Source: Candidatus Levyibacteriota bacterium (lineage in GTDB: Bacteria > Patescibacteriota > Microgenomatia > Levybacterales > UBA12049). Taken from it: DNA of 64,000 nt. Shown here one piece after another: positions 2,476 through 14,760 of the stretch (its first letter is position 1; each line of letters opens with the position of its first letter). Below the pieces are notes generated by a model. The model did no database searches and was not told the origin of the DNA. It saw only the letters and a list, made by a program, of their open reading frames with translations. The position numbers and the translations under genes are program-made. The stretch spans positions 80,689 to 144,688 of the forward strand of contig JACPLG010000008.1 in the NCBI GenBank assembly GCA_016186625.1, read 5' to 3'.

Positions 2476-3510
2476 TTAAAATTGCTCGAGAAATTCTAAT
2501 TTATTTGAATAGAGTAAGCGCAAATCATCAATTTCGATCCCTTCTTTCATCATTAGAACTCGCTCAACCCCCCAACCGAATGCGAATCCGTTGTGTTTTT
2601 CCGGATCAATCTTGCAGTTTCTTAGAACTTGAGGATGAACCATCCCCGCTCCTCCCAATTCAAGCCAGCCTTCTTTGCAGAGCTTACAGCCCCGGCCTAA
2701 ACAAACACCGCATGTTACATCCACTTCAAAAGATGGTTCGGTAAACTCAAAATGATAAGGTCTTATTCTTGATTTTCGTTCTTCTCCAAAATATGTTTTA
2801 ACAAAATATTCTAGTACTCCCTTAAGGTTTGAGATCGATAAACTAGTATTAACAGCTAATCCTTCAAACTGGTGAAACATTGGGGTATGCGAAACATCAG
2901 ACTGTCTCCTGTAACACCTAGCGATATTTAGCATTTTAATAGGAAGCTTTCCTTTTTCCATCTCTCTAATTTGACCATTTGATGTGTGTGGAGTTAAAAG
3001 CATTGGCCCATATTTTGGATGAGGGGGTGCATCTATGAAAAAGGTTTCCCAGTCATCCCTAGCAGGATGATTTTCCGAAAAGTTGAGAGCTCCGAAGGGG
3101 TACCAGTCCCATTCCACTTCAGGATAGCGGACTCGCCCAAATCCTATTTTTTCAAAAATTGATGTTATTTCCCAAATTGCCTGAGTGATGAGATGTAAGT
3201 GTCCAAGGGGAGGCCTTATTCCCGGGTCGGTTACATCAATTTTTTTGATTCTTTTCCCTAATTCTTGATTCTTAATTCTTACTTCTTGTTCGATAATGGC
3301 ACTTTCAATTGATTCCTTAACTTCATTTGCTAAGATTCCCACCTCTCTTCTTTTCTCAGGATTTATTTTTGGAAGGCGTTTTATAACAAGAGTTAACTGG
3401 CCGCTTTTTCCCAAAAATTGCAGTTTAATATGTTCAAGTTCGTCCGGGTCCTTAGCGTCCAAAATAAGTGACACCGCATTATTTTTGATATTGATGAGTT
3501 CATTTTCCAT
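2476..3510 (-). CDS. pheS: Phenylalanine--tRNA ligase alpha subunit
   Basis: 344 aa; class II aaRS motifs (FRPSYFPFTEPS-like EFTEPSFEVDV, GWAFGLGLERL-like GFAFGWGVERV). ATG start. Confidence 0.9.
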   Translation of the reverse strand: MENELINIKNNAVSLILDAKDPDELEHIKLQFLGKSGQLTLVIKRLPKINPEKRREVGILANEVKESIESAIIEQEVRIKNQELGKRIKKIDVTDPGIRPPLGHLHLITQAIWEITSIFEKIGFGRVRYPEVEWDWYPFGALNFSENHPARDDWETFFIDAPPHPKYGPMLLTPHTSNGQIREMEKGKLPIKMLNIARCYRRQSDVSHTPMFHQFEGLAVNTSLSISNLKGVLEYFVKTYFGEERKSRIRPYHFEFTEPSFEVDVTCGVCLGRGCKLCKEGWLELGGAGMVHPQVLRNCKIDPEKHNGFAFGWGVERVLMMKEGIEIDDLRLLYSNKLEFLEQF

Positions 3511-3628: not shown

Positions 3629-5860
3629 ATGCCCGATAATCAGGAGCAAATTGTTGTAAAAGAAAAATCAGGATTTATAAGAAGGGTTCTTGGACCAATT
3701 TTATCCCCCTTTGATAAGCTTTTTAGTATGCTTCCCAAGGATAAACGAAAACTAACACTCCTAATTATTACCCTGGCAATTCCCATAACTGTAATAGCTG
3801 CTCTTATTCAGCAGGAGCTAAGGGGAAGAGCTGCTGGAGAAAGACAGCTCATCATGGGAATGTCTAACAGAGGTGGTTATAGTAGTAAGGATGTTAATGT
3901 TCAAGGAATTAAAGAAGCAATAGAAACAATCAGGAGAGAAACAGGACGATATCCTGCCATTTATCCATTATGGGTAAATTTTGAAGAAAGTCCAGGAAGT
4001 GGTGACCCGAGAGCCTCTTTCCCTAGTAAAGAAATTACAGATTATTTAGATGCCAGAGGTATTGCTGTTGCTATTTTTATGCAGCCCGTTGGCCCTGGGA
4101 TTGGCAGAAATGACGGAAGGTTTATTTTCTCCTCTAATACCTCTTCGTCAGTACCAAATGGCCAGATTAAGTTTGATTCTTCAAATCCCTCAAGTATAAC
4201 AAGGATATATGTAAGTAAAACTTCTTCAGGCACTGAAAATCCTGCAGGGCTTGCTAATACCTGGGTTCCTGGCGCAAAGGCTTCTGTGTTCGGCTCTGAT
4301 TCAAGTGGGAATGTAGCCTATACTGATTCAAATTTTTTTGGTTTCACTGTTAACTCTAAGGCAGACAGCGGGACTTTCTGGACGCTCGGAGTAACTGTAA
4401 ATAGAGCTGGTAGTTTGTCCGGTATTTTTTCAAACGGAAGGCCTGTCTTCATTACGATGGCCGATACTTTTGCCAAAAAATACAGCAATCAATCAATCGC
4501 AAACGGATCGTTTGATCCATTTCTGCGGCAACTTGCACAGGCTGCAAGATCGTATGGGAAACCTGTTCTTCTTAGATATGCTCATGAAATGAATGCACAT
4601 TGGTTCCCATGGACAGTTGGACAACCAGACCCAAAAAAAAGTTATGGAAGATACGTGTATTTTAATCAGGGAAATACGCCTTCGAATTATGTAGCAGCAT
4701 GGAGACGTGTTTATACAGTTATAAAATTGGAAGCTCCGAATGTTAAATTATTCTGGGTTCCATCAAGAGTGGCTCCGACAAAACTTGATATATATGATGG
4801 TTTTTACCCCGGGAATAACTACGTTGATTATGTAGGGTTTGATGCTTATAGCGGTCTAGGCGGAAATAACCCTAAGAACTATATTTCTATGTATGACTCC
4901 TACAAAAGAGTTATGGAAAAGGTACTACAGCTTTCAAATAACAGAAAACCTGTTTTTATAGGTGAAACTGGAGTCAATTCTATAAATGTACCAAGCGGTT
5001 TTAGTAGAGCGGATTGGGTGAGGCGAGGATATAATGATGCATATAACGCATGGCCCAAGCTCGCAGGAATTATTTATTTCAACTTTGATATGAGAGATAC
5101 TGAGAACAATAACTGGTTATTATCTGCTTCTCCCGAAGCGTTGTCAGCATATAGAGATATAGCTTCAAGAGCCAAGTTTCAGGGTAAATTTGAGGAAGGA
5201 TCCACACCAACACCAACCCCAGTCCTTCCAACAGTTCCGCCAATTATAGTATCGCCTACCCCATCCCTAGGTATTTCAGCCTTCATAGAGTCAGGTGGAA
5301 GTGTGGTTATGGAAGCTGAGAATAATGACAAAAGATTTAATAGAGGCAATTATAGGTGGGCAGGTGCGGCACCGGATACTCCACTCACAGCAACCTCTGG
5401 ATATGTGAACGAAGGAACTAGAAAAGGATACACAGCAGTAAGACCAAATGATGATAAAGTAACTTATTTTGAAGGAGGATATAAAAAGGGTCCTGAAGTG
5501 GTGTATAACATTAATTTCTCTTCAACTGGAACATATTATGTTTACATGAGAAGCTCAGGTCCTGATAGCAAATCAGACTCAGCTCACTATGGTCTTGATG
5601 GCGCCTATGATGGCACTATAGCCTTATATTATAGAGGGGAGGGGGGTGCTTCAACTAATTGGCAGTGGAAAGGAAATAATAATGATGGAACAAAAGCTAG
5701 AATTAGAGTTACTACTCCTGGAATTCATACGTTCCATATATACATGCGAGAAGACGGGACACAAATCGATAGAATTCGACTTTTTAAAAATTCTTCCTGG
5801 ACTCCATCACCAGGTCCTGCTGCAGATGGTCCTTCAGAAAGTCTAAGAGGGAAATTCTAG
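3629..5860 (+). CDS. Membrane-anchored glycoside hydrolase family 26-like protein with PT-linker and C-terminal beta-sandwich (CBM-like) domain
   Basis: N-terminal TM helix; LLRYAHEMNAHWFPW matches the GH26 acid/base signature (AHEMN..W..W); FIGETGVNS matches the nucleophile GE.G region; TPTPTPVLPTVPP linker. Confidence 0.55.
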   Translation: MPDNQEQIVVKEKSGFIRRVLGPILSPFDKLFSMLPKDKRKLTLLIITLAIPITVIAALIQQELRGRAAGERQLIMGMSNRGGYSSKDVNVQGIKEAIETIRRETGRYPAIYPLWVNFEESPGSGDPRASFPSKEITDYLDARGIAVAIFMQPVGPGIGRNDGRFIFSSNTSSSVPNGQIKFDSSNPSSITRIYVSKTSSGTENPAGLANTWVPGAKASVFGSDSSGNVAYTDSNFFGFTVNSKADSGTFWTLGVTVNRAGSLSGIFSNGRPVFITMADTFAKKYSNQSIANGSFDPFLRQLAQAARSYGKPVLLRYAHEMNAHWFPWTVGQPDPKKSYGRYVYFNQGNTPSNYVAAWRRVYTVIKLEAPNVKLFWVPSRVAPTKLDIYDGFYPGNNYVDYVGFDAYSGLGGNNPKNYISMYDSYKRVMEKVLQLSNNRKPVFIGETGVNSINVPSGFSRADWVRRGYNDAYNAWPKLAGIIYFNFDMRDTENNNWLLSASPEALSAYRDIASRAKFQGKFEEGSTPTPTPVLPTVPPIIVSPTPSLGISAFIESGGSVVMEAENNDKRFNRGNYRWAGAAPDTPLTATSGYVNEGTRKGYTAVRPNDDKVTYFEGGYKKGPEVVYNINFSSTGTYYVYMRSSGPDSKSDSAHYGLDGAYDGTIALYYRGEGGASTNWQWKGNNNDGTKARIRVTTPGIHTFHIYMREDGTQIDRIRLFKNSSWTPSPGPAADGPSESLRGKF

Positions 5861-5922
5861 CAAGTACCACACATATTGACTTTACTTTCTTATTAATTCT
5901 ATGATCAAATCAGGCAACTTAT

Positions 5923-8900
5923 ATGTCTTATTATTATAAGTTCAATAACCGTCTTGAAGAAGTAAAAAGCAGATCTCAAAAACTCACCAAACTCCTCAAA
6001 AAAAATAAAAAATCCATAATTGCCGTTTTGATTTTAATTGTTTTTCCTGTCTTTGTTATTGCATCTCAGCAGAGACAAGAGACAAGACAATTCGCATCGG
6101 AAAAAAATAAAGAAGAGAAAACTCCTCCACCTTCCCCAAAAGGATATATTGTAGAATTTAGTTCTTCTCCTGCAATTGCTGTTTCATCGGATGAAGAGGA
6201 TGAGGATGAAGATGAAGATAAATTAGACAAAACACTCCTAGAATCTTCCTATGAGTCTAATAAAAATAAAGTTATTGCGGAGCACCAACGCGCAAAAAGT
6301 GATGTTCTTGAAAAAATTGGAAAGAAATCATTTGATTTATCCAAAAGTAAGAAGGGTGATAAAAAAGTTGTACTTCTGTCAGAGTTTCGAAGTATTTTTA
6401 ACGGTATAGCTATTGATGCAGACGAAGAAGATATTGAGAAAATAAAAAAATCCTCATATGTAAAAGCAGTTTATCCAAATCTGGCAGTTGAAACAACACT
6501 AATGGATTCTATCCCTCTAATAAAGGCAGATAAGGTCTGGCAGGATGTTTTAGACTCAACAGGTGCTCCTGTGACTGGGAAAGGAGTAAATGTGGTAATT
6601 TTGGATAGCGGGATAGATTATACGCATGTTGATTTAGGTGGGACAGTTATTGAGGAGAGGCCTCTTGAGAAAATCAGCAATAAACCGATTATCAATTCGT
6701 ATAATACTGACTCTGCATTTTCATATAATCAAAATAGAATTGCCTATGCCTCAGGAGCGGACCAGGTGACAATTTACTCCTTTGATACCAAAAGCAGCGA
6801 AGACGTTAGTTTGGGGACTTCTGATATAACAGATCCATCTCTTCGCTTGGTTCTTCTTGCCGCAGATGAGCTTTTTTACATAAGCGGTTCTTTTAAAGTT
6901 GTTAACTTGTACCTGAAAAATCTTTCAAGTGGGCAGGTAAAGAAAATTGCCAACTTAGTTCAGGTAGACCAACAGGGTCAGGAAGACCTTGCGCTCATTT
7001 CAGGAATTGCTAGTAAATTTACATTTTCCGCCGATAAGCTATACTATGAGCGCCAGACAGGAGCTGTGGATGGTAATAAAAATATTCTTTACGCTCTCTT
7101 TGCCTATGATTTGTCAACGGGACAGGAGACAAAAATCCTGGATGATTCACCCTACGTGAGATTTGCAAAAGCTTCGGAGAATAAGCTTGTTTATTCCGTC
7201 TATGATCCTCAAGCGGCAAACTTCACAAAAAATGTAGTTAGAGATTTAGACACAGGGGAAGAAGAAGATATTATTTTTCCTGGAGTCGGGCCTGCAATTG
7301 ATTTTAAAAATAATTTAATTTTGTCTAAATCTTATGGTTCTTCTAGGACTTATGATTTATATAATATTGAAACAAAAGAGCAAAGAAAGCTTGTCTTTGA
7401 CGATTCAGAATCCGCACAGATTAATTCTCCAAACATAAACGATCTTTATTATAAACTCCCCAAAGGGCTAATTGGAGATAATGTTATTTTCTTTGAAAGA
7501 AACGACTTAACCTATCAGATAGTTGCTTTTGATTTACAAAAAAATAAGTATTCAATTATAAATCTTAAAACTTTCTCGGGGAAAGTTGCGGGTGATGGTA
7601 AAAAAGTATGTTTTGCCGCAAAATTAGATTTTGAAATTTATTGTCACAACTTCGATACTGAGTTTGCCTACCCATTACCGTCCCAAACCTATAATGAAAA
7701 AGTAAAAGGAGGAATTAATTTTTTTGATTCCGGAAAGGACGGACTGGATGATCTGGGACATGGCACTAATGTAGCCGGAGTAGCAGCAGGTAGCGGCAGT
7801 TTAAAAGGAGCTGCCCCCGGCGCTTTCCTATATTCATATAAAGTTGTGTCTGGGGAAGGTTTTGGATATGTTGATAAAATAATTGCGGGTATTGATGCGG
7901 CTGTCCAAACTAATTTTGACCTAGATCCAACGAATGATATCAAAGTTATTAACATAAGCCTTGGAGCAACTTGCGCTGGAAAGTATTCCGATATTTGCGG
8001 GCCCGCTGACCCAATGTCACGCTCAGTTAATAATGCAGTAGGAAGTGGTCTTGTAGTTGTTGCTGGCGCCGGAAATGGCGGAGCATCTGGCGATCTAATT
8101 TCAAGCCCGGGAACAGCAAGAAGAGCAATAACGGTTGGAGCAATTGATAAATCTAAAAAAATTGCGCAGTTCAGCTCACGCGGTCCTGTTATTTGGAACG
8201 ATAAAGATCTTAAAAAACCGGATGTAGTTGCTCCCGGGGTAGAAATCTGCTCCGCTCAGCTGTTTTATATTTATCGTTCATTTTTCAGATGTTTTGATGA
8301 TAAACATATAAAACAATCAGGAACATCCATGTCAACTCCTCACGTCACAGGACTTGCGGCCTTAATTCTTCAGGCTCATCCAGACTGGAGTCCGGCCCAA
8401 GTTAAAAAAGCAATAAAAGATACCGCAGTGGATTTAGATTATAATTACAACAGACAAGGTGCAGGCTTAATTAACGGGACAAAACTTTTTAAGAAATATC
8501 CTCCAGCCACTCCTACCCCAACAGCCGCTCCAACACCTTCTTCAAGAAAAGTAAATTTATTTCCTACCGCTGATTCGTTTGTGAGAAAAGATAGGCCAAA
8601 AAGTAATTTTGGGACTCTTAAATATATTCAGACTGATTCCAGCCCTGATACAATTTCATTTATTAAATTTAATTTAAGAAGTCTTGCTGACAAAAATATA
8701 ATTTCGGCAAAGTTATATTTAAAAGTAGATGATCCAAGCCAAGCAACGCAGTCTCTAAAAAGAGGGGCAGGCAACAACTGGACACAGCGAAATATTAATT
8801 ACAACAACAAGCCTTCTTTTAATGCGACCATCACCACATTTAAGGCAAATAAAAGAAACAAAATTATAGAATTAGATTTAATAAATCTGGTTAGAAATAG

Positions 8901-9015
8901 GAAAGGAGAGGTAATTACCTTAGGAATTACCTCATCCGGCACAAACCCAGCAAAATACTATTCAGTAGAAGCCAATAGATCAAATAGGCCCAAACTTGAA
9001 GTAGAATATAATTAA
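5923..9015 (+). CDS. Large secreted subtilisin-like serine protease (peptidase S8) with I9-like propeptide, a ~350-aa beta-propeller-like insertion and a C-terminal beta-sandwich domain
   Basis: VVILDSGIDYTHVDL (Asp), GHGTNVAGVAAG (His), GAGNGG (oxyanion Asn), GTSMSTPHVTGLAAL (Ser). N-terminal TM; acidic DEEDEDEDED stretch; PPATPTPTAAPTPS linker. Confidence 0.7.
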   Translation: MSYYYKFNNRLEEVKSRSQKLTKLLKKNKKSIIAVLILIVFPVFVIASQQRQETRQFASEKNKEEKTPPPSPKGYIVEFSSSPAIAVSSDEEDEDEDEDKLDKTLLESSYESNKNKVIAEHQRAKSDVLEKIGKKSFDLSKSKKGDKKVVLLSEFRSIFNGIAIDADEEDIEKIKKSSYVKAVYPNLAVETTLMDSIPLIKADKVWQDVLDSTGAPVTGKGVNVVILDSGIDYTHVDLGGTVIEERPLEKISNKPIINSYNTDSAFSYNQNRIAYASGADQVTIYSFDTKSSEDVSLGTSDITDPSLRLVLLAADELFYISGSFKVVNLYLKNLSSGQVKKIANLVQVDQQGQEDLALISGIASKFTFSADKLYYERQTGAVDGNKNILYALFAYDLSTGQETKILDDSPYVRFAKASENKLVYSVYDPQAANFTKNVVRDLDTGEEEDIIFPGVGPAIDFKNNLILSKSYGSSRTYDLYNIETKEQRKLVFDDSESAQINSPNINDLYYKLPKGLIGDNVIFFERNDLTYQIVAFDLQKNKYSIINLKTFSGKVAGDGKKVCFAAKLDFEIYCHNFDTEFAYPLPSQTYNEKVKGGINFFDSGKDGLDDLGHGTNVAGVAAGSGSLKGAAPGAFLYSYKVVSGEGFGYVDKIIAGIDAAVQTNFDLDPTNDIKVINISLGATCAGKYSDICGPADPMSRSVNNAVGSGLVVVAGAGNGGASGDLISSPGTARRAITVGAIDKSKKIAQFSSRGPVIWNDKDLKKPDVVAPGVEICSAQLFYIYRSFFRCFDDKHIKQSGTSMSTPHVTGLAALILQAHPDWSPAQVKKAIKDTAVDLDYNYNRQGAGLINGTKLFKKYPPATPTPTAAPTPSSRKVNLFPTADSFVRKDRPKSNFGTLKYIQTDSSPDTISFIKFNLRSLADKNIISAKLYLKVDDPSQATQSLKRGAGNNWTQRNINYNNKPSFNATITTFKANKRNKIIELDLINLVRNRKGEVITLGITSSGTNPAKYYSVEANRSNRPKLEVEYN

Positions 9016-9265: not shown

Positions 9266-9317
9266 AAATATCACCACCCTTTTGTACGGGTATACTAGTA
9301 TATCCGTAATAATATTC

Positions 9318-9347
9318 TTGTAGCTTTGCAAGGCCTGGCCTTGCAAA
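9318..9347. promoter_or_regulatory. 29-bp perfect palindrome AGCTTTGCAAGGCC-T-GGCCTTGCAAAGCT between leader hairpin and P1 RBS
   Basis: Read directly from the sequence; candidate operator or RNA hairpin. Confidence 0.35.
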
Positions 9348-9363
9348 GCTAATTTAAGACCAC

Positions 9364-9433
9364 AAAAAAACCTCCCGTTTGGGAGGCTTATTGCCGTTTC
9401 TTTTTTACAACAGCACCTTACCTCCCTAGATGG
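9364..9433 (-). promoter_or_regulatory. Conserved leader: intrinsic-terminator-like hairpin CCTCCCAAACGGGAGG + U-run preceded by GGGAGG-containing hairpin (possible attenuator)
   Basis: On the minus strand: ...CCCTCCATCTAGGGAGGTAAGG...GCCTCCCAAACGGGAGGTTTTTTT, ~80 nt upstream of the P1 start. Same architecture at 14477-14553. Confidence 0.4.
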
Positions 9434-9526
9434 AGGGTAAAGAAGAAATATACCGCTGTAACCCTATTCACTAAAATTATAATAGCAAACATCAAAATAA
9501 ATCGCAAGTGACTATCTTACACTTTA

Positions 9527-9551
9527 CCTTCCCACTTTCCATGTGGGAAGG
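9527..9551. repeat. REP-1 copy (CCTTCCCACTTTCCATGTGGGAAGG)
   Basis: Perfect hairpin palindrome; same family flanks RAYT at 31129-31776. Confidence 0.7.
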
Positions 9552-9558
9552 TAGATAC

Positions 9559-9996
9559 TTATTCCGGAAATAAGAATTCTAGAATTCTAGACTGGTCTTC
9601 TATTAAAGCCCTTGGCTCTGGAAACGCTAGTGTTGAAGTATTTAAAACATCTGGAGATGAAAAATCTGCATGACATGTTAGTATTGTTCCGTCAGGCAAA
9701 ATTACCCAATCCATACTTAATACGTCTCTCACGCGGCTTAAGCGTAAGATAGGCGTTTTTGATGTTACATCTGGGATTTCTCCATGTCCATCCTGAATTG
9801 GCTTGGACCCTTTCATGATGTGTGTTTTAAAACGGTCAGGATCAACGATTTGTATTCGCCTAATTATTGTGCCTAGATGCCAAGCAATCTGAGCAGCATG
9901 GTGAATATAAAATCCCTCTAGTCTTGTTCTGGAAGAATCGCGTCCGTCTAATTTAGGACGAGAATCTGGTGTCAGACCTGGTATTTCTCCTGCCAT
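9559..9996 (-). CDS. Hypothetical protein (weak DinB/YfiT-like HH..Q His-rich motif)
   Basis: 145 aa; GFYIHHAAQIAWHLG; no confident family. Confidence 0.35.
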   Translation of the reverse strand: MAGEIPGLTPDSRPKLDGRDSSRTRLEGFYIHHAAQIAWHLGTIIRRIQIVDPDRFKTHIMKGSKPIQDGHGEIPDVTSKTPILRLSRVRDVLSMDWVILPDGTILTCHADFSSPDVLNTSTLAFPEPRALIEDQSRILEFLFPE

Positions 9997-13317: not shown

Positions 13318-13362
13318 TTTACACCCCGGGTGTGGATTTAAGTTTACACCCTAGGATTTGTG
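13318..13362. repeat. REP-2 copy (TTTACACCCCGGGTGTGGATTTAAGTTTACACCCTAGGA)
   Basis: Two-part repeat identical in structure to copies at 52316 and 52824. Confidence 0.65.
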
Positions 13363-13363
13363 T

Positions 13364-13434
13364 GGACCCGAGAGGTATCGAACCTCTGGCCTCTTCGATG
13401 TCAACGAAGCGCTCTACCACTGAGCTACGAGTCC
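13364..13434 (-). tRNA. tRNA-Val (anticodon GAC)
   Basis: Minus-strand sequence GGACTCGTAGCTCAGTGGTAGAGCGCTTCGTTGACATCGAAG...GGTTCGATACCTCTCGGGTCCA folds as a cloverleaf; anticodon loop TTGACAT. Confidence 0.8.
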
Positions 13435-13490
13435 ATTCAAAGTCGGGCAGGTGTCAATGCAACGCTCTAACCAACTGAGCTACAACTCTA
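13435..13490 (-). pseudogene. tRNA 5'-half fragment (acceptor + D-arm + anticodon-loop TTGACAC, no T-arm) abutting tRNA-Val
   Basis: AGAGTTGTAGCTCAGTTGGTTAGAGCGTTGCATTGACAC then no pairing partner and no GTTCGA box. Confidence 0.4.
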
Positions 13491-13543
13491 TAAAATAAAC
13501 GAGCCCGAAGGCCCGTTTATTTTAACAAAATAAGTTCATTGGA

Positions 13544-13840
13544 TCAAATACAGTTAGTTCGAGGTCTTGGCATGACTTTGGCCATATTCGGTGCCTCTTC
13601 CGGAGGCGGAACATGCATTATTCCTCCATCCACTGCAAATGCGTGACCAACACGCATTGTTATACTCTCTCCGTCAGGAGTTCTTCCTGTGATAAATTCT
13701 TGTGGTGTACCACCATCTATTAATAAACCCGCTCTTCTATGTTCTGTCCATGGGTTTGCTTGTGTTACGCCTGTCATTTTATCCGCTGCATCAGCCGCTG
13801 CCCTTGATTCTCCTGTTTCAAATCCTGTCTCCGTTACCAT
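13544..13840 (-). CDS. Hypothetical small protein P2
   Basis: 98 aa; strong SD GGTAGGGGGTGAT 8 nt upstream of ATG; immediately follows P3 stop; GC-richer. Confidence 0.4.
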   Translation of the reverse strand: MVTETGFETGESRAAADAADKMTGVTQANPWTEHRRAGLLIDGGTPQEFITGRTPDGESITMRVGHAFAVDGGIMHVPPPEEAPNMAKVMPRPRTNCI

Positions 13841-13857
13841 AATTAATCACCCCCTAC

Positions 13858-14463
13858 CTAAAATTTCCCCTTTCCTTTCATTCGCAATTTTCCATTAGTG
13901 GATTCTCTTATTCCGTATCCAACTCCAGCTAATTTAGCTAATTCTTGCCCGATCTCATCATTTCTGCGGAAGGCGTTGACTACCAATACAGTTACTTTTT
14001 TTCTGGGATCTCTTACATCCGGTAATTCGTCTCTTGCGAAGAATGATGTCATGTCACTACCCACTCCAGTTCCTCTAATTTGCGCCCGGTACATTGTTGC
14101 TAACTCTGGTGTGTCTGGAATTGTTGTTAACCCCTGCCTATGTCCTTCGTTATTTGCCAGCCTTTCACCGTCTCTTTTTACCGCTTCCATTAATTCTGGA
14201 ATTTGGTTTGGAGGAAGTCTCCTGGGGTTGATAGAGAAAGTTAAGCTTGCACGTAACGCATCGGCTATAAACCAGCTACCGCCGTTTCCAGATATTGGTT
14301 CTACGCTTATTTTATCTACCTTTGTAGGGTCTATGTATGGATGTCTAGGAGAGTCTGCAATCATTCGCGCAATCACAGCCGCATCATGGCGGGTAAACTC
14401 ACCGGCTCTAAAAAGATCAGGTCTTTGACCTGTTTGTCTTGGTTCAAAATCTTGTCTTCCCAT
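13858..14463 (-). CDS. Hypothetical protein P3 (start taken at internal ATG; listed ORF begins with TTG)
   Basis: 201 aa, Arg/Asp/Gly-rich, no recognised motif; preceded by terminator-like hairpin 27 nt upstream. Confidence 0.4.
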   Translation of the reverse strand: MGRQDFEPRQTGQRPDLFRAGEFTRHDAAVIARMIADSPRHPYIDPTKVDKISVEPISGNGGSWFIADALRASLTFSINPRRLPPNQIPELMEAVKRDGERLANNEGHRQGLTTIPDTPELATMYRAQIRGTGVGSDMTSFFARDELPDVRDPRKKVTVLVVNAFRRNDEIGQELAKLAGVGYGIRESTNGKLRMKGKGKF

Positions 14464-14476
14464 ATTCTTAAGCAAC

Positions 14477-14620
14477 AAAAAAACCTCCCGTTGGGGAGGT
14501 TTCTAAGTTAGTCTAACCTTAATTATGCGTCAGACTTACCTCCCCGTAAGGAGTTGATAAGGACGAGAATAAGGTTTTTAATCTTTTCTACCATAGACAA
14601 ATACTAACAACTGGAAATAC
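14477..14620 (-). promoter_or_regulatory. Conserved leader (paralog of 9364-9433) with candidate promoter TTGACT-N17-TAGTAT and anti-antiterminator/antiterminator/terminator hairpins
   Basis: Minus strand: TTGACTtgagtatttccagttgtTAGTAT ... CTCCTTACGGGGAGGTAAG ... AACCTCCCCAACGGGAGGTTTTTTT then ATG 27 nt later. Confidence 0.4.
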
Positions 14621-14760
14621 TCAAGTCAAGAGGGGAAAAGAAGCGGAGCCCTTAAATAGCTAGAATAGTTGAATGGGTAAAATGGCTATATCATTAAGAG
14701 ACAGAATTATTATAATCGATAAACCATGTAGCCATGAAACAATTTAACAATTTACTGGCT

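Follow-up and report, generated by a model that had tools for sequence, protein, structure and literature searches.

The Phe leaders of Escherichia coli pheM-pheST and pheL-pheA (Rfam Phe_leader, RF01859) and the trp, leu, and ilv attenuators are built alike: a short leader open reading frame (ORF) carries a run of regulatory codons, and the transcript can form a 1:2 hairpin, a 2:3 antiterminator, or a 3:4 intrinsic terminator. In E. coli, pheM sits after rplT and before pheS. Starvation-induced genes also show a cognate bias, biosynthetic enzymes being poor in the amino acid they make. We analyzed a stretch of 64,000 nucleotides (nt) from a Candidatus Levyibacteriota bacterium (assembly GCA_016186625.1, contig JACPLG010000008.1, positions 80,689 to 144,688; hereafter the window), in which two leaders that resemble these precede small genes: P3 and P2 at locus A, and P1 at locus B. 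The leader looks like a ribosome-mediated transcription attenuator that senses an amino acid, Phe before P1 and Leu/Ile before P3-P2. Since the leader has this appearance, P1, P2, and P3 are probably native starvation-induced genes and not paralogous, horizontally acquired modules, as a preliminary description of the window had proposed. Positions given below are those of the window, and its features lie on the minus strand unless noted otherwise; related loci are cited by L numbers.

At locus A, a sigma-70-like promoter (TTGACT-17-TAGTAT with an extended TG, 14601..14629) is followed by leader peptide ORF A (14523..14594), which encodes MVEKIKNLILVLINSLRGGKSDA up to its stop codon, with the C-terminal part NLILVLINSLRGGKSDA. 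The ATG of this ORF lies about 7 nt past the -10 hexamer, and the ORF contains a Leu/Ile/Val codon run, region 1 (AACCUUAUU...CUCC), and region 2 (GGGGAGGUAAG). Matching TTGACA-17-TATCAT promoters were found at the equivalent place in L001, L005, and L007. Intrinsic terminator A (AACCUCCCC-AAC-GGGAGGUU plus a U run, 14472..14504) comes next, and its 5' arm is also complementary to GGGGAGGU of leader ORF A, giving the predicted antiterminator. Locus B has a sigma-70-like promoter (TTGCGA-17-TATTAT with TG, 9479..9507), leader peptide ORF B (9418..9471; (V/M)NRVTAVYFFFTLHLGR up to its stop codon), and intrinsic terminator B (GCCUCCC-AAAC-GGGAGGU plus a U run, 9363..9389). The leader peptide before P1, MNRVTAVYFFFTLHLGR, ends in VYFFFTLHLGR; three Phe codons in a row stand directly 5' of region 1 (CCUCC), and region 2 (GGGAGG) has the stop codon immediately after it. 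Terminator stems of the form CCUCCC-N4-GGGAGG with a U run were located at 14479-14504 and 9368-9389, and exactly two copies of the 24-nt terminator core were counted in the window, where none would be expected; that both loci stand behind the same conserved leader, as first described, is borne out.

Structural features of a classical attenuator were found at both loci. Each has a leader ORF with a cluster of regulatory codons, conserved in relatives, followed by an intrinsic terminator that stands before the first structural gene. Folding in silico gave 1:2, 2:3, and 3:4 pairings that exclude one another, and region 1 overlaps the regulatory codons. The minimum free energy fold consists of a long 1:2 hairpin over the leader ORF plus the terminator (z = -3.8 and -4.6 for the two leaders). 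When a ribosome footprint was masked at the FFF codons of locus B, folding yielded the GGGAGGU:GCCUCCC antiterminator. The alignment of both leaders with RF01859 over their full length (scores below) also speaks for this reading. Among leaders of the locus A type (class A), the region 2:3 antiterminator folded in 12 of 12 cases, at -20 to -27 kcal/mol and near the energy of the terminated fold, and the arms of its inner hairpin vary by locus while remaining complementary (GUCUGAC/GUUAGAC, UCUUCGC/GCGAAGA, and GUUCGG/CCGAAC). A small-molecule riboswitch with mini-ykkC or preQ1-like loops was considered and dropped in view of the conserved leader peptides with synonymous codon changes; a search of the window against Rfam at gathering threshold returned tRNAs only and no known riboswitch.

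The start of the leader ORFs sets them apart from the E. coli Phe leaders. The leader start codons lie 7-13 nt past the predicted -10 hexamers and lack a Shine-Dalgarno sequence (SD), both in the window (14592-14601 and 9469-9479) and in L001 (95-110), and the leader peptides may be translated from leaderless or nearly leaderless transcripts.

Scanning one genome per species with the pattern GGGAGGTA-N28-58-CCTCCC-N4-GGGAGGTTTTT retrieved 58 loci, which fell into two groups. The first comprised gammaproteobacterial Phe leaders of the classical kind (among others from Rheinheimera, Arsukibacterium, Alkalimonas, and Bowmanella), and the second consisted of Microgenomates (Levy-, Curtiss-, Roizman-, Gottesman-, and Dojkabacteria). 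The class-A leader peptide is kept in 11 distinct relatives with synonymous or conservative codon changes (Leu UUA/CUC/UUG; Arg/Lys CGG/AGG/AAG), and leaders rich in F, Y, and W that are homologous to leader B were found in L001, L016, L021, L032, L042, and L062. Across the Microgenomates the codon run changes along with the gene behind it: FFF, FYF, or WFYF stands 5' of a small ORF and pheS, or of chorismate mutase/prephenate dehydratase/aro genes; CCC precedes a cysK-like gene and MMM precedes metG; a Trp codon precedes trpB-trpA-trpS; and a Ser-rich run precedes a HAD-type protein that is SerB-like by motif only (examples within L008-L065: L037, L033, L050, L024, L034, L022, and L023/L041/L052/L057). 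The leader device thus looks like a family of amino-acid-specific attenuators in Microgenomates. In L073 (651-731), a class-A scaffold (...NSLKGG...) carries FYFFFFW in place of LIIVLL and is followed by an unrelated 67-aa ORF; the class-A switch seems here to have undergone a natural exchange of codons, and the replaced hexamer is therefore the likely regulatory run. Small genes and leader were found together in relatives, a co-occurrence that had been proposed as a check.

Two side observations concern the loci retrieved. The gene that precedes the class-A attenuator of L006 ends in an ordinary terminator (296-330) that also reads CCUCCC-GAAA-GGGAGG-U7, and a terminator stem resembling SD and anti-SD may be a general feature of the lineage and not specific to the attenuator. 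L017, L022, L024, L025, L028, L034, L042, L054, and L062 are titled "uncultured Gammaproteobacteria bacterium", have low GC, and carry loci of the Microgenomates type, and L028 has a class-A leader peptide identical to that of L005, plus an HD gene; the taxonomic labels of these records look doubtful.

We propose that the two units would work as follows. Each would be transcribed from its own promoter, and the short leader peptide would be translated almost from the 5' end. With plentiful cognate charged tRNA, the ribosome at the stop codon would cover GGGAGG (region 2), the CCUCCC/GGGAGG-U7 terminator would form, and transcription would stop. A ribosome stalled on the regulatory codons (FFF at locus B; at locus A the Leu/Ile/Val run LILVLI) would instead mask region 1, leaving region 2 free to pair with the terminator's 5' arm, so that RNA polymerase would enter the ORFs. 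P1 would be induced by Phe limitation, because a stall at FFF would permit read-through, and P3-P2 would form a self-contained unit induced by Leu/Ile limitation. Since the three proteins are poor in the sensed amino acid, they should be translatable under exactly the limitation that induces them.

The composition of the encoded proteins agrees with this scheme. Phe makes up 0.6% of the residues (5/785) encoded behind Phe leaders, 3.3% in class-A ORFs, and 5.5% in window proteins (Fisher p = 1e-5), while Leu makes up 4.8% in class-A ORFs versus 7.1% in class-B ORFs (those of the locus B type) and 9.7% in the background (p = 0.014); these statistics pool related sequences, so both p-values are optimistic. 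For Ile the corresponding values were 4.7%, 5.9%, and 8.3%. The near-absence of Phe recurs among mutually unrelated ORFs behind Phe leaders. The depletion fits proteins meant for production when the sensed amino acid is scarce, and it parallels the cognate bias described above: Phe is almost absent from the ORFs that follow Phe leaders, and Leu and Ile are scarce in those that follow Leu/Ile leaders. Here, however, the bias is found in orphan small proteins and not in pathway enzymes. Because Leu and Ile are depleted and Val is not, the composition points to Leu/Ile, and not Val, as what class A senses.

Several observations, including the pooling just mentioned, weigh against this interpretation. 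Aligned end to end with RF01859, the leaders of locus A and locus B scored 46.6 bits (E = 5e-7) and 37.0 bits (E = 7e-5), both under the gathering threshold of 55 bits, and the terminator gives much of the score. The leader helices are almost invariant, with a compensatory change in 1 of 23 pairs, so that covariation support is weak. At locus A, equilibrium folding with the masked ribosome still favors the terminator; because the terminator wins at equilibrium, the antitermination choice of the model must be kinetic there, as in classical attenuators. Leader peptide B begins with GTG at or near the 5' end of the transcript, an unusual context for initiation. For class A, the regulatory amino acid was read from a mixed L/I/V run, and the ORFs behind it show no depletion of Val. 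Unrelated ORFs fill the class-A slot in close relatives, which disfavors a single essential function, and the AlphaFold2 model of P2 was poor (predicted local distance difference test score, pLDDT, 52), with a disordered N-terminal half.

The three genes lie on the minus strand where the preliminary description had placed them. P3 was originally listed as 13858-14478. Because all P3 homologues begin at MG(R/K), the true start is most likely the ATG at 14463, which gives a basic orphan alpha/beta protein of 201 amino acids (aa) (13858..14463; pI 9.8) with a Lys/Arg-rich tail. P2 (13544..13840; 98 aa, acidic, pI 5.2) starts 17 nt past the P3 stop and has a strong SD, GGGGGTGATTAATTATG, which is kept in L001 and L006, in line with the excellent SD of P2 already remarked upon. 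P1 (9029..9265; 78 aa, acidic, pI 5.6) contains one Phe and has its own SD, GGGUGGUGA. NCBI lists the products of P3, P2, and P1, with identical sequences, as the hypothetical proteins HYW63_03000, HYW63_02995, and HYW63_02950.

Homologues of the three proteins are few. P2 has two (57% and 47% identity), and P1 has one in the databases (58% identity) and further copies in L001, L016, and L031. For P3, only five relatives of about 200 aa were found among 1.84 billion representative proteins, in addition to the copy in L005, and across syntenic genomes its sequences have diverged to 26-45% identity. No extra copies of P1-P3 were found in the window by tblastn. Codon alignments gave ratios of nonsynonymous to synonymous substitution (dN/dS) of 0.10-0.55 in the three families, with third codon positions varying most. 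Between this genome and L001, P1 and P2 share 53-57% identity, compared with 62-64% for the neighboring HD protein and thrS and 80-85% for infC, rplT, and pheS. Judged by these alignments, P1, P2, and P3 are genuine protein-coding genes under purifying selection. A structured RNA in place of proteins, the reading that the absence of homologues with conserved frames was to have favored, is excluded by the conserved reading frames. The preliminary description was also right that the genes are of no recognized family: P1-P3 had no match in Pfam, NCBIfam, PHROGs, or PADLOC, a profile search of PDB sequences returned nothing for the P3 family, and the cassette ORFs of relatives yielded nothing usable. 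Overall, we consider it reasonably probable that P1-P3 are fast-evolving genes without a known family, restricted to a Levybacteria-type clade, that form the first cistrons behind two ribosome-mediated attenuators.

By its layout, locus A is a predicted self-contained unit, in which P2 is followed by a hairpin and then by tRNA-Val. The GC-rich hairpin with flanking A/T runs (13493..13523) was read by eye; its stem is imperfect and was not listed by the terminator scan, and it is probably the end of the P3-P2 transcription unit. The tRNA-Val(GAC) gene (13362-13434) adjoins a truncated tRNA-Val 5' half (about 13435-13490) that resembles the L006 gene, so the tRNA-Val pseudo-copy reported beside this locus is present. 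The tRNA spot was compared with those of L006 (about 1440-1545), L001 (about 755-1056), and L010. The tRNA gene is co-directional with P3-P2 in the window and antisense to the cassette in L001, L006, L010, and L021, and in L001 a GIY-YIG endonuclease gene occupies the spot, which suggests a local inversion or recombination hot spot.

The cargo behind class-A leaders differs among relatives. P3 and P2 occur together in the window and in L005; P3 stands beside a different protein of 84 or 110 aa in L006 and L070; a 63-72 aa Arg-rich protein is followed by P2 or another protein in L001, L028, L060, and L066; and still other pairs were found in L010, L021, and L071. In L006 the P2 slot holds an 84-aa protein, which by hhalign was unrelated to the P1 and P2 families. 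The 63-72 aa first ORFs were examined as truncated forms of P3, and this was rejected for lack of detectable similarity. Of 10 cassettes, 8 begin with a strongly basic product, which in 7 of these 8 is followed by an acidic one.

Locus B resembles E. coli pheM-pheST in its position after rplT and, in relatives, before pheS, and differs from it by the extra small gene P1 between attenuator and pheS. In L001 and L016, pheS follows directly behind the P1 homologue. In the window, two genes of the opposite strand (3629..9015, plus strand), one GH26/GH115_C-like and one an S8 subtilase with CBM96, lie between P1 and pheS (2476-3510), which is followed by pheT (345-2411); pheS and pheT are the putative ancestral downstream genes of attenuator B. 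The sequence upstream of pheS, gactgcattttgg...aatttgatatccttaaa, is common to the window and the P1-pheS spacer of L001, and because of this match the inserted DNA is taken to be the glycosidase-like/protease pair and not P1. P1 is thus, by this comparison, the first cistron of a putative ancestral Phe-attenuator-P1-pheS-pheT operon, split here by a 5.4-kb insertion; the earlier proposal that P1 had been inserted into the thrS...pheST cluster had native and inserted DNA reversed. As the gene pair separates P1 from pheS, pheST is predicted to be without its Phe attenuator in this genome, and the attenuator would now drive P1 alone. Elsewhere, two other genes stand between a P1-type ORF and pheS in L031, and L032, L054, and L062 have other small ORFs between the Phe leader and pheS.

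The surroundings of P1 contain further elements. The spacer of about 100 nt between terminator B and P1 holds a perfect inverted repeat of 15+15 nt, TAGCTTTGCAAGGCC-T-GGCCTTGCAAAGCTA (9321-9351), and a second palindrome, GGATATACTAGTATACC, lies at 9288-9304 before P1; a similar CCGATATACATGTATATCCG is found just 5' of the P1 homologue in L001. These repeats could be an operator or a processing or stabilizing hairpin. Between rplT and the Phe attenuator, the window has a 145-aa ORF without a Pfam match (9559-9996), where L001 has a 94-aa GreA/GreB N-terminal-domain protein; a 13-bp hairpin, CCUUCCCAC/GUGGGAAGG, follows it at 9523-9555.

The AlphaFold2 model of P3, built from six sequences, predicted an alpha/beta fold with disordered termini (pLDDT 78.8; predicted template modeling score, pTM, 0.74). 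Its likeness to RelE/ParE is a lead and not membership, because the Foldseek search of the model against PDB and BFVD gave no significant match and the comparison of the P3 profile with E. coli RelE and HigB by hhalign was negative, the RelE and HigB sequences used being approximate. Since P3 is modeled as an alpha/beta protein and is basic with a Lys/Arg tail, and P2 is acidic and partly disordered, P3 may, with low confidence, be an RNA- or ribosome-directed starvation effector with P2 as partner or moderator. For P1, a role as a small acidic accessory in the starvation response of phenylalanyl-tRNA synthetase (PheRS) is possible, or it may serve simply as a "runway" cistron free of Phe.

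A competing explanation, which we regard as rather unlikely, is that P3-P2 is a type II toxin-antitoxin-like pair in higBA order, with P3 a ribosome-dependent RNase of the RelE/ParE superfamily that has an extra N-terminal domain, and P2 its inhibitor; the attenuator would then be mere promoter context or, alternatively, would make the pair a hard-wired starvation brake on translation. Like the RelE/ParE toxin units (HigB, YafQ, YoeB, RelE, and ParE), P3-P2 is a tight two-gene unit with a basic first and a small acidic second product, with the two genes 17 nt apart and a conserved SD. There is a conceptual link as well: RelE targets ribosomes whose A site is empty, and this is the state that the attenuator would sense. 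The cassettes also decay in a toxin-antitoxin-like manner, L001 and L066 having a short unrelated basic ORF of 63-72 aa in the P3 slot while the second ORF is kept, and the adjoining tRNA gene, with the GIY-YIG endonuclease of L001, points to a recombination hot spot. P3 is, however, twice the size of these toxins, and searches of Pfam, NCBIfam, PADLOC, PDB sequence profiles, and hhalign gave no RelE/ParE toxin family match, nor did Foldseek; catalytic residues are not assignable in P3, and P2 has no recognizable DNA-binding antitoxin domain. In L006 an intact P3 homologue stands beside the unrelated 84-aa protein, and the locus is chromosomally syntenic and not mobile across genomes in spite of the divergence of P3.

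The small ORFs could also be a "runway" or spacer, or young lineage-specific ORFs, with products of little import: translation would keep ribosome and RNA polymerase coupled and protect the transcript up to pheS or the next gene, and the sequences would drift and be freely replaced. The turnover of cargo fits this account, since at least five mutually unrelated families of first or second ORFs stand behind class-A leaders and the interval from Phe leader to pheS/pheA-type genes is filled by several unrelated ORFs (60, 57, 136, and 102 aa). No known domains were found, the composition of P1-P3 is disorder-like (grand average of hydropathy -0.4 to -0.8), P2 is predicted to be largely disordered, and a runway would need precisely such a depletion of the cognate amino acid. 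We nevertheless judge the account improbable, as dN/dS stays under 1 for each of the three families, P3 is predicted with confidence to be a folded protein of about 200 aa, with the conserved motifs GNGxxW, GLTTxP, and MYRxQxxGTG, and P1 and P2 are about as conserved as thrS and the HD protein. Moreover, P3-P2 has no downstream gene to serve, because a terminator-like hairpin or an antisense tRNA follows it.

A more specific form of the starvation-effector reading unites the attenuator with the RelE lead: a Leu/Ile-starvation attenuator would switch on RelE-like P3 and its moderator P2 as a translational brake independent of guanosine tetraphosphate (ppGpp), in a cassette swapped rapidly among lineages, and P1 would be the analogous accessory in the Phe/PheRS unit. 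This detailed scheme is speculative and quite improbable as a whole.

The remaining account is that of the preliminary description, which took both loci for GC-shifted, horizontally acquired modules and P1 and P2 for paralogues sharing partly permuted segments. A GC elevation does exist, with gene values of 0.464, 0.465, and 0.436 for P1, P2, and P3 against a gene mean of 0.394 (standard deviation 0.035; z = 2.0, 2.1, and 1.2), but it is modest and falls inside the range of other window genes. By codon position (1/2/3), GC was 0.58/0.53/0.28 in P1, 0.58/0.55/0.27 in P2, and 0.52/0.46/0.33 in P3, compared with 0.49/0.36/0.33 in the background. The excess is confined to positions 1 and 2, and GC at third positions (GC3; 0.27-0.33 versus 0.33 +/- 0.03 in the background) is native; for this reason the GC shift reflects amino-acid composition and not foreign origin, as Gly, Ala, Arg, Thr, and Pro are abundant in the proteins and Leu, Ile, Lys, Phe, and Ser are scarce. 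Synteny with relatives holds for both loci, which were found at equivalent positions in L001, L005, L006, L007, and L016; L007 has the order tig-DUF5660-leader-P3-P2, and L001 has leader-ORF-P2-...-HD-thrS-infC-rplT-GreA_N-leader-P1-pheS. No relationship between P1 and P2 was detectable by BLASTP (E = 18), and comparison of the family profiles by hhalign gave a probability of 0.8% over 6 aligned columns, covering the PWT patch only. The GHAFAVDGG-type segment thought to be common to both is not kept even inside the P2 family, where homologues have AYSTPMDGG and GITAEINGG. That P1 and P2 are circularly permuted paralogues, acquired horizontally with P3 as GC-rich modules, is thus scarcely credible in spite of the common leader, the short PWT(D/E) patch, the METG-like N-termini, the raised GC, and the adjoining tRNA gene with its pseudo-copy, since the common leader is a general regulatory device that stands before many unrelated Microgenomates genes.

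The regulatory mechanism proposed for P1-P3 is of a known kind in an unusual host and with an unusual cargo. The host belongs to the Candidate Phyla Radiation (CPR)/Patescibacteria (Levybacteria), and the class-A leaders, unlike classical attenuators, would govern orphan small proteins only and no biosynthetic or aminoacyl-tRNA synthetase gene. A literature search, limited to one searchable collection, found no paper that combined Patescibacteria/CPR with leader-peptide attenuation. The reinterpretation of the leader is the most useful result, as it links P1-P3 to a starvation response and opens them to experiment. If it is true, the orphan, unannotated small proteins of CPR bacteria would gain a regulatory context, as products that are starvation-induced and poor in the sensed amino acid, and P3-P2 would be a testable candidate for a new starvation effector pair. 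Minimal, largely auxotrophic CPR/Patescibacteria would then sense single amino acids by textbook ribosome-mediated attenuation.

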